IMG/VR virus record: IMGVR_UViG_3300042342_000302
Span: 1-46,500 of that record
Strand: one strand, 5' to 3'
DNA: 46,500 nt
Origin: a virus
Lineage: Duplodnaviria; Caudoviricetes
Shown here: in pieces, positions 14,283 to 46,425 of the stretch
Layout: the number at the start of each line of letters is the position of its first letter
How positions within the stretch are numbered: the stretch's first letter is position 1
Notes under the pieces: generated by a model
Database searches by the model: none
What the model saw: only the letters and a program-made list of their open reading frames with translations
What the model was told of the DNA's origin: nothing
Made by a program: the position numbers and the translations under genes

Positions 14283-15398
14283 TTAATTTTTTTTAATGTT
14301 AAATAATTCTGGTCTTCTTTGTTTTAGTTTATACATCTCATCGTCTTGCCATACTGGTTTCTGATATTTGGGTTTGATTATCTTCCATACCATGTGATCG
14401 TATTCTCTGCCATCCCACATTGCAAATAGTATGGACTTATGCTGTTTATCTACATACTTGTCCAAATGAAGAGCGAAGTCTTTTTTGCTAGGTTCTGGGT
14501 CCACATCGTTGTACTTACCGTATCTGAAATAATCGTGTATCTTACCGCAGTGTTCTCCTACTGAAAATTTGGCGTAGCTTAAGTTCATAACCCAATTTCT
14601 GACCCATTTGTCAAATTCGTCAGGCACTTTTTCTAGGTATTTCTCTATATCTTCGCCGTTCTTTAATATCTCCCATATATCTACGTTAGAAAGTCCAGTC
14701 AATATTCTATGTAGTCTCACGTACTCCTCTCCTTTGATCTTCATCCTGGTTCCATCGTTAAATCTTACAACGAATCCTTCTTGATTGTTTTTAATCATGG
14801 ACTTAAGTTGCTTATAATCTTTTATACCATCATATTGATATACTACATCGAAGTTGTCTTTATAGTAAGGAACTTGTACACTTGCTTCTATACCATCTGG
14901 TGAACAATCAATACAAGCAAGCAATACTAATTTTTCTAAACTTCCGTAGTTACACACAATCCTATTTTCTGGGTATATTATCTCGAATAGATATGTATAA
15001 CCTGGGGATAATAATTCTGAGTTGTATTTGTTTAGCATTTCTCTACCCTTTATTGCCTGATCAGAAACAAAAGATCCTTTGGAAGCTAAGTGCCATTCTC
15101 CATTGTAGTAGAATACAATACCCAAAGATCCGTCCATCTTCTCGTACACATGAAACTCTTCGTTAGGTATCTCTTTCATTTCCTCCATATTGAAGAACTT
15201 AGGAAATGATTTGGCTATCACATTACCTTCGTTGTCCAATATTGTGCCTCTCATGTTCAAAGTAATATCGTCCCATCTCCCTTCGTATTGACACGTACGC
15301 GAGTAGTTATAGATAGACAGCGGTAAAGTAGGGTGATCCTGTTTTACCACATATCCTCGTTCTATGTAGTTGTTTAATATGTCTAAATCGTATTTCAT
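14283..15398 (-). CDS. T4 Rnl1-like RNA ligase
   Basis: IYNY, RG, FPKFFN, EKMDGS (motif I), TYLFEII, EGFVV, MKIK. Confidence 0.92.
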   Translation of the reverse strand: MKYDLDILNNYIERGYVVKQDHPTLPLSIYNYSRTCQYEGRWDDITLNMRGTILDNEGNVIAKSFPKFFNMEEMKEIPNEEFHVYEKMDGSLGIVFYYNGEWHLASKGSFVSDQAIKGREMLNKYNSELLSPGYTYLFEIIYPENRIVCNYGSLEKLVLLACIDCSPDGIEASVQVPYYKDNFDVVYQYDGIKDYKQLKSMIKNNQEGFVVRFNDGTRMKIKGEEYVRLHRILTGLSNVDIWEILKNGEDIEKYLEKVPDEFDKWVRNWVMNLSYAKFSVGEHCGKIHDYFRYGKYNDVDPEPSKKDFALHLDKYVDKQHKSILFAMWDGREYDHMVWKIIKPKYQKPVWQDDEMYKLKQRRPELFNIKKN

Positions 15399-15808
15399 TA
15401 TAATTTAATATTAAAGCGTGATTTCATTTGTTCTATTTTTTCATCAGGTACTCCGTGTACGTTTTTACCTCCATGCCTATTCTCTATAATAAAGCTAAAC
15501 ACTTTATATCCGTATTGCTCTGCTAGTTTAAAGTACGGCTCCATCTCCCATTCTTGTGTGAATGTATTCGATACTACAATTTCTGGATAGTATTGAGGAT
15601 TCGCTATGTTATCTTTCATTCTTATTTCTACTTCATTTCTGCACCACTCGTGTGCTTGTCTTAATTTACTAGCATCGAAGTTGTAATTGCCTTCTTTATC
15701 GTAGAAGAACTTATCAGCTTCGCATATTGCGTAATCGTTCCACACATGATGAGCGAATGTAGATTTGCCTGAGCCAGGAATTCCTCGTATTAGGTATAAC
15801 TCTTTCAT
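15398..15808 (-). CDS. P-loop kinase (AAA_33 / polynucleotide-kinase-like)
   Basis: RGIPGSGKST, EAD, VSNTF, NVHGVP. Confidence 0.88.
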   Translation of the reverse strand: MKELYLIRGIPGSGKSTFAHHVWNDYAICEADKFFYDKEGNYNFDASKLRQAHEWCRNEVEIRMKDNIANPQYYPEIVVSNTFTQEWEMEPYFKLAEQYGYKVFSFIIENRHGGKNVHGVPDEKIEQMKSRFNIKL

Positions 15809-15813
15809 ATTTT

Positions 15814-16470
15814 TTATTTTGAATAATTTTCAGTTTTTTCGTGATGGTCAAATTTGAATAATGATTTGATTGGTTGTTTATTCATTAAGCTTAGCACTTC
15901 TGACATATCTATTGGATATAAATTGTTACCATCCACTCCCGCATCCATCATTTTGCCAGGTCCTATGCGTTGATTTGCAGGGAAGTGGACGTGACCGTGT
16001 AAATGGATTGTTCCTCTGGCCATGTTATTCCAACTAGCAATAGGATAGTGCATACACATAAACAACTGATCACCCATTAGTGGAGTACCAACGTTGTACT
16101 TTACATGAAGGTACAAGTAGTCGTGCACAGAACTGAATAAAGATTGTACGTTCTCTTTATTCTTTTGAATGTGGTCATCATGATTGCCTAATACTAAATG
16201 AATAGTCTTGCACACAATTCTATCTCTAAATTCCTTGATGCTATCGAATCCACCGAATGACCAATCTCCTAAGTGAATTAGTATGTCGTCTTGCTTAACC
16301 ACTTCGTTTATATTATCTACTAAAGTAGCGTTCATTCTTTCTAAACTCTTGAACTCCCTTATTGTAGTAGGATCAGTCCACTTAGTGGTAGCCGAACATA
16401 TATTAGCGTGATTATAATGCGTGTCACTCGTAAAAAATAACCGCTGTCCTTTTTCTAATGTTATCTTCAT
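15814..16470 (-). CDS. calcineurin-like phosphoesterase
   Basis: TSDTH, LGDWS, GNHD, HYP, HGHVH, DAGVD. Confidence 0.92.
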   Translation of the reverse strand: MKITLEKGQRLFFTSDTHYNHANICSATTKWTDPTTIREFKSLERMNATLVDNINEVVKQDDILIHLGDWSFGGFDSIKEFRDRIVCKTIHLVLGNHDDHIQKNKENVQSLFSSVHDYLYLHVKYNVGTPLMGDQLFMCMHYPIASWNNMARGTIHLHGHVHFPANQRIGPGKMMDAGVDGNNLYPIDMSEVLSLMNKQPIKSLFKFDHHEKTENYSK

Positions 16471-43587: not shown

Positions 43588-43923
43588 AAGCTGTTGTTCT
43601 TGACTTATTTTTTATTTTTTGTTAATTAACTTTGATTCCAATTTGTCTAGTCGAGAATCCATCATGCTGTATATAGCTTGTTCTGATTCTGCTCGACTTC
43701 TGTGAACATTTTCTATCTCTAAGGATAGTACTCTATTTGTTTGAGCGTCTATTTCAATGACGTCTCTATTGAGGTCTTCGATTCTTTTTTCTAACTTAAT
43801 GGTCTTAACGAAGGCAATAACAGCAACTACCGCTAACGCGATAACCACCACTAAGCTCATCCCTAAAACGAATGATAGTGTTTCCATATTTTATTTCTCC
43901 TATATGCCAAAGAACAACAGCTT
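43588..43923. repeat. 14-bp perfect inverted repeat enclosing one CDS
   Basis: AAGCTGTTGTTCTT at 43588-43601 and AAGAACAACAGCTT at 43910-43923. Confidence 0.85.
43612..43887 (-). CDS. single-TM coiled-coil protein
   Basis: hydrophobic N-terminus, heptad tail ending DSRLDKLE; AGGAG upstream. Confidence 0.8.
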   Translation of the reverse strand: METLSFVLGMSLVVVIALAVVAVIAFVKTIKLEKRIEDLNRDVIEIDAQTNRVLSLEIENVHRSRAESEQAIYSMMDSRLDKLESKLINKK

Positions 43924-43924
43924 G

Positions 43925-44094
43925 CTGACAGGACTGGATTCGAACCAATATGCAGAGATTCAATAGTTAACAAAGTTGCTCGCGAGCTTGTGGTCTACCC
44001 ATATCAACTATCTATTTCTTTATCTGCGTCCTCGGGACCGGAGGATGTGTATGCCGGGGTCATAACTGAGACAACCCAATTTCACCACCTGTCA
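43925..44094 (-). ncRNA. 170-nt enlarged tRNA-like RNA
   Basis: UGACAGG/CCUGUCA acceptor, AUUGG-UUCGAAU-CCAGU T arm, extra D-loop hairpin, ~80-nt variable arm, non-canonical loop CGGUCCC. Confidence 0.75.
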
Positions 44095-44099
44095 TTATA

Positions 44100-44348
44100 T
44101 TAATAGATTCCGTCTTCGTCGTCTATTTTAAAATCCAATTTATTCTGATCGATTCTGGCTTGTTCAGCTTCTTTGTACCATCTAATCCAAGTTATAGATA
44201 CGTCAACAGGAGCCAATACCCAAGCCATTACTACAACCATAATAGCGTCTAACTCAGGAGAATTATATTCAACTCCTGATCTTTTGTATCTTTTGTTTAG
44301 TTGATAGAAACAATAGATAACACAAATAATGTAATAAATCAATAACAT
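44100..44348 (-). CDS. small membrane protein
   Basis: start re-assigned to MLLIYY so that it does not overlap tRNA-Gln. Confidence 0.75.
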   Translation of the reverse strand: MLLIYYIICVIYCFYQLNKRYKRSGVEYNSPELDAIMVVVMAWVLAPVDVSITWIRWYKEAEQARIDQNKLDFKIDDEDGIY

Positions 44349-44371
44349 ATTTTTAATTTTTATTTTTAAAG

Positions 44372-44442
44372 TTCCCACTCATGGATTCGAACCACAACAA
44401 ACTGCACCAAAAACAGTTGTACTACCGTTATACTAAATGGGA
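44372..44442 (-). tRNA. tRNA-Gln(UUG)
   Basis: full cloverleaf; ACTGT-TTTTGGT-GCAGT; GGTTCGAATCC; CCA not encoded. Confidence 0.9.
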
Positions 44443-45026: not shown

Positions 45027-45142
45027 TGCCGGTGGAAGGGATTTTCACCCTCACGGAGTCCTTTTCGGTCACTCCACCATTCTAGAATAGGTACGTCTCA
45101 ATGTTACTCGTCAGTTTACACTGTTTATTCCGCCACACCGGC
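45027..45142 (-). ncRNA. 116-nt Leu-type tRNA-like RNA with expanded D loop
   Basis: GCCGGUG/CACCGGC acceptor plus A73, GCGGAA...AGACG D arm with insertion, irregular anticodon arm, T loop UGAAAAU. Confidence 0.7.
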
Positions 45143-45563: not shown

Positions 45564-46425
45564 AAAGCTTGAGACTACAGCTTCGACATGCAAAATCTTT
45601 AAGAGGATTATTTTGTTTCCCTCTCTGTCCAGTTCCTTTTGAGATCTATCTTTGCAATGCCAATTGATTAGGTCAATTACACCTTGAGCTACTTTAATTT
45701 AGTGGGATACTCTCTTTTTACTCCAACCGTTCAACTCTGCCGAGCTGATACATCCTTGCGAGATTACGACCTTTTAGAAAGAATACTCTCAGACTTGCGA
45801 TCTTTGAGTGCAACGAACCTCTCGTTACTGTGTAGGCATCTTTCTCCCGTAGCTGGCAAGCGCTTAAGCTTATGATTATATTAATTTTGATAAATTGAAA
45901 TCAAAGTTTTGACTTGTGGATCGTAAAGGTAGCGGCTTGCCACTGAACCTGCTCAGCTTTTGGCCAAGTAGATATTCAACTACCTTTTGAGATATCCCTA
46001 TCTCGGTTATTTTAGACAACTTCGTCAAAGAGTCTTGGTAGACTTCTTCGAAGGAAAGTAGCAGCACCATCTGTTCTCTTTCTTACCTTAAGGTTTTTAG
46101 CCATTCGGTTTTAAATCGCCATTCAATACTAGTGTGCGCAATAGTGTAATTGGATAAACTACATTTCTTGCATAATCACTCTCAGATTATTCTTATTGCT
46201 CTTCCAAGCTCAATCAGACAACCCACATTGCCTGATCACCAAACCATTTCGCTACGGAGTTACCCTCACTACTACAGGTCCAATGATATTCTGATTGCAT
46301 ACTCGAGCTTATTGCTAAGCCGCAAATAGGTTCAGTCAAACCTACTCACTTTATACTTGTTTCCAAGTTTATTTAACGACTATATGCCGCCGACGTTATT
46401 TAGGATTTCTCCACGGATAACAATA
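45564..46425 (-). ncRNA. large structured ncRNA, probably GOLLD-class
   Basis: ~870 nt without a credible ORF, dense hairpins with G-U pairs, own promoter and terminator, next to phage tRNAs; family assignment is from size, context and recalled resemblance. Confidence 0.7.

Follow-up and report, generated by a model that had tools for sequence, protein, structure and literature searches.

A conserved tRNA-shaped RNA with an invariant aspartate anticodon and an exchangeable variable arm in freshwater phages and Saprospiraceae

Can an RNA that folds as a tRNA, but carries a variable arm of 76 nucleotides (nt) and unusual bases beside its anticodon, still be used as a tRNA, and if not, what might it do instead? 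In textbook tRNAs the variable arm reaches a limit of about two dozen nt, and U33 together with a purine at position 37 is near-universal. The question is raised by a 170-nt element on the minus strand (44094–43925) of a phage sequence of the Caudoviricetes, the IMG/VR virus record IMGVR_UViG_3300042342_000302, of which positions 1 to 46,500 were analyzed; this whole stretch of 46,500 nt is referred to as the window. CheckV estimates its completeness at 28%, and related phages have genomes of 160–320 kb. A first-pass annotation, made from the letters only, had read the element as a tRNA scaffold that displays a functional RNA module and whose loop does not decode. The analysis presented here places it in a family of phage and bacterial RNAs and tentatively favors, with somewhat less than even confidence, a tRNA-derived and tRNA-processed RNA that would be recognized by aspartyl-tRNA synthetase (AspRS), would not be a routine decoder and would bear a modular arm.

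The element is a real conserved tRNA-shaped RNA, for which the evidence from the family is decisive, as the single-sequence fold alone is not significant (its energy is unremarkable, z = -0.79). The first relative was one near-identical copy found by an exact pattern, and further candidates were collected from loci around relatives of two neighboring proteins and from an arm-motif scan of the viral collection. By nhmmer, the full-length element was recovered in 25 of 40 loci fetched with the gene of a 91-amino-acid (91-aa) protein, 7 of 35 fetched with that of a 306-aa exonuclease, and 77 of 93 fetched by the arm pattern; among the 16 pattern loci without a full-length element, three matched the motif alone, and one further copy was cut by a contig end. 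The pattern-derived loci were selected by the arm motif itself; the protein-anchored loci, which were fetched independently of it, retain the same motif, GGKUWGACCAY. Together, 65 distinct full-length phage sequences (alignment A1) and 54 distinct bacterial copies give 119 members. For the 65 phage homologues, RNAalifold predicted 38 pairs, 29 of them with compensatory changes. When 40 pairs were counted directly, 97.5% of the cells were paired, compared with 81.5% in column shuffles (0 of 500 reached the observed value) and 40–50% with slid partners; both partners have changed in 30 of the 40 pairs, and covariation scores 0.472, compared with 0.08–0.17 for the controls. The earlier view that this is a conserved tRNA-shaped RNA instead of a product of decay or chance is therefore borne out by the compensatory changes among the homologues. 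An Rfam search gave no known family for it.

The window copy is a complete cloverleaf with exactly the boundaries first proposed, and the covariance model R1 matches it over its full length (43925..44094, minus strand; 133.9 bits, E = 5e-37); all features below lie on this strand, and RNA position i equals 44095 minus the window coordinate. The 5' strand of the acceptor stem, UGACAGG (44088..44094), forms seven of seven pairs with 43926–43932 in the 3' strand CCUGUCA, which together with the discriminator G73 (43925) occupies 43925..43932; all but one of the seven pairs show compensatory changes. G73 is followed by CAAG, so that CCA is not encoded. The acceptor stem (7 bp) is followed by U8 and G9 and by a D arm (44047..44085) with a 3-bp stem, G10-U11-G12 with C46-A47-C48, and a loop containing A14, G18G19 (RNA 40–41) and A21, and A26 stands after this arm. 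The D stem covaries in the 65 phage copies, with U-A in 54 and C-G in 11 at position 11, and G-C in 49, G-U in 10 and A-U in 5 at another pair. The D arm had been overlooked in the first-pass annotation, whose acceptor stem, T arm, anticodon stem and loop, and arm helices are all present; the stretch that it left unplaced is an optional hairpin inserted in the D loop (44056..44079, RNA about 16–39). The columns of this hairpin are gapped in the minimal 141–143-nt phage members, which revealed the complete cloverleaf, and in two members of 157–158 nt (L016 and L056), and they vary in length and sequence among the remaining members of A1. Three other pairing schemes were rejected: a pseudoknot of GUGGU (RNA 7–11) with ACCAC in the arm was ruled out by eye on the alignment, in which variants at position 10/11 covary with the D-stem partner and not with ACCAC; a GGCAUA-UAUG pairing was ruled out in the same way; and the CAC before GGCAUA was replaced as D-stem partner by the CAC after it on the evidence of the minimal forms.

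The anticodon arm (44029..44045) has a covarying stem, UCCUC/GAGGA, and a 7-nt loop, CGGUCCC, in which G33 and C37 flank the aspartate anticodon G34 U35 C36 (44036..44038). One unpaired base precedes the hyper-extended variable arm of 76 nt (43952..44027, RNA 68–143), and two unpaired bases separate it from the T arm. The arm consists of three helical segments, broken by purine-rich internal loops, that lead to a small junction with a hairpin carrying a 9-nt loop. Its helices lie at alignment columns 72–75/170–173, 81–83/167–169 and 88–100/153–163, with compensatory changes at 14 of 18 pairs; in the window they include GCAG/CUGC and AUAGUUGAUA/UGUUAACUAU. The conserved 9-nt loop (43991..43999), closed by G95-C105, reads GGUAGACCA in the window and GGUUGACCA in most members. 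Of 120 distinct sequences scanned from phages and bacteria (one 5'-truncated bacterial copy included), 104 contain this motif; its first closing pair is G-C in 103 and A-U in one, and its second covaries (U-A 68, A-U 12, G-C 11, unpaired 13). An optional distal palindromic hairpin, GCUCGCGAGC (43978..43987), is missing from the minimal forms, and some relatives have other palindromes in its place, such as GCCGGC, CUCGAG, CGUACG and CUGCAG. The T arm, AUUGG-UUCGAAU-CCAGU (43933..43949), is paired in 100% of cells, with compensatory changes at four of five pairs. Thus, the window copy has the 7-bp acceptor stem, the 5-bp T stem, U8, A14, G18G19 and a UUCRANY-type T loop of a canonical tRNA, and the base-paired variable arm between anticodon and T arms that defines class II; with GUC and G73 invariant, the family has neither a Leu, Ser or Tyr anticodon nor the A73 of tRNA-Leu and tRNA-Tyr.

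The positions that are frozen in this family and those that are free differ in kind. G34, U35 and C36, together with G73 and the first acceptor pair U1-A72, are the same in all 65 phage and all 54 bacterial copies, and C38 is kept in 53 and 54 of them, respectively (107/119). On the other hand, U33 is retained in only 11 phage and 46 bacterial copies (57/119), and a purine at 37 in two of each (4/119), with U at this position in 62 phage and 52 bacterial copies. The first reading of the loop as non-decoding is therefore right in that the rule of U33 and a purine at 37 is broken throughout the family, and incomplete in that the loop remains under a decoding-type constraint at G34-U35-C36, in 119 of 119 copies. 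The invariance of GUC implies a function for the tRNA body itself. Because the bases specific for a reader are frozen and the decoding bases 33 and 37 are free or deviant, the pattern would fit recognition by a synthetase, AspRS, better than use by the ribosome. According to the available passages of PMC9976931, the bacterial Asp identity set consists of G73, G10, G34, U35, C36 and C38, and G1-C72 and G2-C71 are strictly conserved in bacterial tRNA-Asp, G1-C72 being crucial. The window copy has G73, G34, U35, C36 and C38 of this set as well as G10 and G2-C71, and its pair 1-72 is U-A, as in all 119 members. At the top of the acceptor stem, the family has G2-C71, and most members, among them every bacterial copy, also have U3-A70, which is not found in the window copy.

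Judged from these signatures, the family is a chimera: its body is of the Leu type, the anticodon, the discriminator and acceptor pairs 2 and 3 are of the Asp type, and the first pair, U1-A72, is its own. Bacterial tRNA-Leu (host UAG/GAG) shares with it the 3-bp D stem, a near-identical D arm, a long arm flanked by one unpaired U on its 5' side and by GU on the side of the T stem, and a T arm of canonical form; in the host tRNA-Leu(UAG), the D arm and the arm junction are almost the same as in the family, whereas the acceptor has G1-C72, C2-G71 and A73. The family differs from tRNA-Leu by G73, U1-A72/G2-C71, GUC, U37 and the optional D-loop hairpin, and its arm reaches about 130 nt, compared with about 12 nt in tRNA-Leu. 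With canonical bacterial tRNA-Asp(GUC) it shares GUC, C38, G73 and G2-C71, for most members also U3-A70, and an anticodon stem of the C-rich/G-rich kind, whereas that tRNA is of class I, has 75–77 nt, G1-C72, U33 and A37, and is co-resident with the family.

The first-pass annotation needs correcting in one more respect, as cells carry the family besides phages. A pattern scan of 185,579 species genomes yielded 89 matches, about the number expected by chance, and nhmmer confirmed 13 loci as members. Eleven of these lie in contigs titled Saprospiraceae (including Lewinella), Bacteroidota or Flavobacteriales, none of them with a tRNA nearby, and the five whose flanks were examined have ordinary cellular neighbor genes. 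In the genome-taxonomy family of one Saprospiraceae-titled genome, R1 matched 86 of 151 genomes at E <= 1e-12; these matches score 67–127 bits, measure 95–224 nt and often occur in 2–5 tandem copies. In a phylum-wide sample, 14 of 151 genomes were positive. The bacterial alignment was built from 60 matches and holds the 54 distinct full-length copies. These copies are stand-alone genes with promoter-like and terminator-like flanks of their own, namely TAnnTTTG-like boxes about 45 nt upstream and trailers made of a hairpin and a U-run; of 55 bacterial copies, all encode C74 and only 10 encode CCA. The other two confirmed loci adjoin tRNAs and are probably mis-binned phage DNA: one lies on a 170-kb contig in a Methanobacterium bin (L197) and one on a 518-nt contig in an Alphaproteobacteria bin (L198).

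Bacterial copies combine one common core with arms of widely different types, including that with GGUUGACCA, another type that also recurs, short arms capped by GNRA or UUCG (RNAs of 95–116 nt) and giant ones (RNAs of 195–224 nt), so that arm length ranges from about 20 to about 130 nt across the family. Tandem paralogues may have an identical core and different arms, which agrees with the first-pass description of the variable arm as an exchangeable module. The short-armed members show that this module does not account for everything. Some tandem arrays contain three to five members together with repeated upstream segments (L269, at G114:C1 about 4336203–4337194, and L296, L302 and L295), and arm types may be mixed within one array.

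Existing detectors and literature give little indication of such an RNA. ARAGORN called the window element neither a tRNA nor a transfer-messenger RNA (tmRNA), and a search of Rfam 15 gave no match to it at the gathering score or at E <= 10, including RF00005, the tmRNA clan and the intron families; at E <= 1, no known aptamer or motif was found in any form or arm type, and the 95–113-nt bacterial members likewise had no tRNA match in Rfam. One 95-nt bacterial member is called tRNA-Asp by ARAGORN. R1 separates the family cleanly, as members score 67–134 bits and no canonical class II tRNA exceeds 41 bits (host tRNA-Leu, the best, 36–41; T4 tRNA-Leu 36.3; T4 tRNA-Ser 30.9; window tRNA-Ser 25.1), and where related loci had no full-length element (59, of which 58 were scanned), R1 gave tRNA-Leu-level matches only, of at most 37.8 bits. 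BLAST searches of 50,697 GenBank phage records gave no match, whether the query was the element of the window, a typical copy of the family or 6.5 kb of the window, and full-text searches of the literature yielded no description of such an RNA. A tmRNA was ruled out by the ARAGORN and Rfam results and by the full anticodon arm, and a tRNA with a group I intron by the lack of an intron-family match at E <= 10, by the position of the extra sequence in the variable arm and D loop, where it is conserved and covarying, and by a colinear RNA contig.

The family is thus apparently undescribed, its arm architecture and host range being new, and the nearest described RNAs are the allo-tRNAs and nev-tRNAs. 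Species 1 and 2 RNAs of phage T4 (rnaC and rnaD) are also stable non-tRNA RNAs inside the tRNA cluster of a large phage, and rnaC ends with a canonical T arm; rnaC lacks a GUC loop or a comparable arm, and homology was rejected as R1 gave rnaC 16.9 bits over its T-arm end only. A known chromosomal tRNA-like RNA that is aminoacylated and thought to act outside translation offers a parallel, but it comes from another lineage, is as large as an ordinary tRNA and has no extended arm. Nematode nev-tRNAs reportedly have Gly or Ile anticodons and are charged with leucine. Like the present family, they are class II tRNAs with the anticodon of a class I amino acid (PMC3333845, in part), but they are eukaryotic and have arms of normal size. 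In the part of Mukai et al. (NAR 2017, PMC5389517) that deals with them, allo-tRNAs are irregular long-armed tRNAs of bacteria and phages, tRNA-Sec-like in structure, whose anticodon need not match the likely charging identity and among which GUC is one of three predominant anticodons; a regulatory, non-translational role is raised there too. They have an 8/4 or 9/3 acceptor/T geometry, whereas every aligned member of this family has 7/5, and they come from Clostridia, Proteobacteria and Acidobacteria, whereas this family belongs to freshwater phages and to Bacteroidota of the Saprospiraceae type, and its modular arms are far longer.

Evidence on expression comes from lake water. The window stretch is present in 14 lake-water DNA runs with at least half of the sampled words (0.86–0.99; two of the runs are possibly the source sample) and partly in six metatranscriptome runs. 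Four RNA runs were compared, all as assembled contigs in which RNA ends are not visible and DNA carry-over is possible. One 151-nt RNA-library contig, of depth 2 and with one mismatch, lies inside the element (43934–44084, RNA 11–161) and runs colinearly across both the D-loop insert and the arm, no joints being reported; it lends weak support to transcription of the element without splicing, in line with the first-pass view that the inserts are not spliced out. Contigs of two other RNA runs join the flanks to alternative alleles found in relatives.

According to the reading tentatively favored above, the element would be matured like a tRNA, by RNase P, 3'-end processing and CCA addition, as its tRNA fold, its context in tRNA arrays and the missing CCA suggest; AspRS would recognize and probably aspartylate it; it would be excluded from the ribosome as a routine decoder; and the oversized variable arm would probably be an exchangeable docking or regulatory module, with a putative partner for the loop GGUUGACCA. 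In favor of this reading, the element is not the sole tRNA for aspartate, since canonical tRNA-Asp(GUC) was found in three of three large phage genomes with the element (182 kb, 238 kb and 321 kb, the last two estimated complete) and canonical tRNA-Asp with G1-C72, G2-C71, U3-A70 and G73 in five of five bacterial genomes examined.

Several observations weigh against it. Being on the side of the variable loop, a long arm might collide with AspRS. The element is accessory, since it is missing from the nearest relative of the window phage with a genome estimated complete (174 kb), which has an open reading frame (ORF) in the place just upstream of the 91-aa gene (locus L042, 3500–4000). Short-armed members of 95–116 nt indicate that the arm module is dispensable for the role of the core, and U33 is kept in most bacterial copies (46/54), so that weak decoding may occur there. 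G10 is present in 59 of 65 phage but only 3 of 54 bacterial copies, and U1-A72 stands throughout the family in place of the strictly conserved G1-C72 of bacterial tRNA-Asp (PMC9976931, in the passages cited). The RNA evidence consists of contigs at depth 2, which may include DNA, and mature ends, CCA and charging are what we infer. Finally, no protein partner recurs beyond apparent synteny at 30 bacterial loci (GH113 at 11, Peptidase_M23 at 7, AAA_26 at 6, aspS at 1 and lysS at 1).

Among the rivals, the one that survives best is that the element is a working tRNA-Asp isoacceptor whose altered loop flanks and arm evade host anticodon nucleases, so that Asp decoding by the phage continues during defense; we consider it unlikely but worth weighing. 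The position of the element inside phage tRNA arrays would suit such a decoder, as would the ARAGORN call of one bacterial member as tRNA-Asp. Side by side at 14283–16470 (minus strand), the window has genes for an RNA ligase of the Rnl1 type, a protein with a polynucleotide-kinase domain and a phosphoesterase, which we take to be the classic phage tRNA-repair module, as used by T4 against anticodon nucleases. Moreover, in comparison with three close relatives (L039, L040 and L041), the element of the window is only about 70% identical, with its structure kept, while the adjoining 250-nt flanks are 88–98% identical; this sharp divergence island, as would be expected at a conflict interface, suggests allele replacement, fast evolution or diversifying selection. 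Nevertheless, a decoder is hard to reconcile with a pyrimidine at 37 in 115 of 119 copies, the loss of U33 in 54 of 65 phage copies and arms of up to about 130 nt, which would seem difficult for the ribosome to accommodate; the canonical tRNA-Asp genes in the same phage genomes also speak against it, and escape from host defense leaves chromosomal bacterial genes and tandem copies with different arms unexplained.

Slightly less probable still is an uncharged decoy or regulator which titrates a reader of the GUC loop (AspRS, a tRNA-modifying enzyme, or an anticodon-loop nuclease or toxin) without itself being consumed. It would account for reader-specific bases that are invariant beside neighboring loop positions that are free, for the rapid turnover of alleles between near-identical phages and for the multi-copy arrays in bacterial genomes, and some irregular tRNAs are linked to toxin-antitoxin loci in the part of Mukai et al. 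concerned (PMC5389517). However, no toxin, nuclease or synthetase gene recurs beside the element at the 30 bacterial loci, and U8, A14, G18G19, the T loop, G73 and the encoded C74 are all kept as in a chargeable tRNA.

The same signatures bear on a doubtful third alternative, namely charging by seryl-tRNA synthetase (SerRS) through the long arm and G73, as in allo-tRNAs, by which Asp codons would be misread as Ser or Ser would be carried for a tRNA-dependent conversion. The arm junction is of the tRNA-Leu type, which in bacteria orients the arm unlike that of tRNA-Ser, and the 7/5 geometry differs from the 8/4 or 9/3 of allo-tRNAs. The invariance of GUC would also be unexplained unless the RNA decodes, against which the loop argues. 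A class II body with an invariant G73 does agree with serine charging (PMC7609411, in part), the predominance of GUC among allo-tRNAs is a striking parallel (PMC5389517, likewise), and bacterial copies have G2-C71 and R4-Y69 of the bacterial Ser identity set as far as given in the passages of PMC9976931; C72 of that set is replaced by A72, and C11-G24 occurs in only 16 of 119 copies.

In phages, the element might instead be a punctuation mark at which RNase P or 3'-end enzymes cut a polycistronic transcript and release the mRNA of the highly expressed 91-aa gene, a reading to which we assign a very low probability. It starts 5 nt past the stop of the ORF 44100–44378 and ends 37 nt before the ATG (43887) of the 91-aa membrane/coiled-coil ORF, and RNA contigs over this gene are deep (47–81) and end at 43882–43912, just 3' of the element, while upstream depth is 0–20; contigs, however, cannot show RNA ends. 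An acceptor/T minihelix would suffice for such a role, which leaves the invariant GUC and the conserved arm loop unexplained; the neighbors in many phages are tRNAs and not ORFs, and the bacterial copies stand alone and are followed by terminator-like hairpins. A decaying tRNA pseudogene or chance fold, for which the missing ARAGORN and Rfam calls and the unremarkable single-sequence energy could be quoted, is refuted by the 119 distinct homologues, in which compensatory changes are pervasive and key bases do not vary, and deserves practically no credence.

Returning to the reading of an AspRS-recognized RNA that does not routinely decode, a bolder version, which we regard as speculative and improbable as a whole, is that of a natural 'tRNA scaffold' of the Saprospiraceae group and its phages: a chargeable Asp-identity body would be kept off the ribosome by U37, a free position 33 and U1-A72, and would bear interchangeable arm modules that fold back on, or bridge to, the anticodon or CCA end, so that the RNA might act in trans as a sensor or carrier of the aminoacylation state, e.g., as a non-decoding carrier for tRNA-dependent Asp/Asn chemistry. 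Such folding back or bridging could occur because the 9-nt loop of the commonest module, GGUUGACCA, contains both GAC, the codon cognate to its own GUC, and GGU. Both T-box leaders and RNase P RNA base-pair with the 3' ends of tRNAs through a GGU trinucleotide. U1-A72 is presumably a determinant for the amidotransferase GatCAB. GatB, AsnRS and GlnRS (the last two being the synthetases for asparagine and glutamine) were detected above curated cut-offs in five of five bacterial genomes with the family (G120, G114, G063, G093 and G006); GatB is present in 126 of 151 genomes of the phylum sample, including all 14 that are RNA-positive, so that the co-occurrence is uninformative on a role in transamidation. 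As a separate observation, the amidotransferase is retained in those five genomes although both direct charging routes exist.

What makes this family of interest is that it breaks tRNA conventions in a conserved and orderly way, with a Leu-type body, an Asp acceptor top and anticodon that are kept, position 37 nearly always U, and an arm that reaches about 130 nt and is exchanged between paralogues, and that dozens of large freshwater phages, as well as over half of the genomes sampled from one bacterial family, carry it. If the RNA is charged and does not decode, it would add an example to the tRNAs devoted to non-ribosomal tasks, and be the first of them with a built-in modular RNA domain; if it does decode, it would redefine what the ribosome can accept. 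An engineered 'tRNA scaffold' has been used to express RNAs, and in either case the family would be its natural counterpart, which can be tested, as cultured Saprospiraceae exist.

In phages, the copies always lie on the strand of the tRNA genes and often only 4–8 nt from their neighbor, the frequent neighbors being tRNA-Ser(UGA) upstream and tRNA-Leu(UAA) or tRNA-Met downstream. In the window, tRNA-Gln (44372–44442), tRNA-Ser, tRNA-Thr, tRNA-Glu and a GOLLD RNA are found upstream of the element on the same strand. The GOLLD RNA is full-length (45566–45987, minus strand; 232 bits against a gathering score of 150) and heads an RNA-gene block with the tRNAs and two tRNA-like RNAs, the element and a second one described below. 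The 174-kb relative that lacks the element has only one tRNA match.

Most optional hairpins of the phage copies, in the D loop and at the arm tip (A1 columns 16–47 and 137–147), are perfect palindromes such as those listed above and GGAUAUAUCC, so that their 4-nt loops are self-complementary, which a simple hairpin does not require; they could reflect kissing-loop dimerization or an origin at the DNA level.

The second tRNA-like RNA of the window, which was also missed by ARAGORN and Rfam, comprises 116 nt (45027–45142, minus strand) between tRNA-Ser and tRNA-Thr. Its acceptor (GCCGGUG/CACCGGC, with A73) and its D arm, into which a hairpin is inserted, resemble those of tRNA-Leu; its class II arm is short and its T loop, UGAAAAU, is odd; a 15-nt palindromic hairpin takes the place of the anticodon arm, so that there is no 7-nt loop. 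It is conserved, with compensatory changes, in no fewer than six other distinct sequences of related phage loci, including the relative without the main element, and the sequence is identical in L041. In another related phage locus (L016, 2052–2452), a tmRNA gene (76 bits) adjoins tRNAs and the element.

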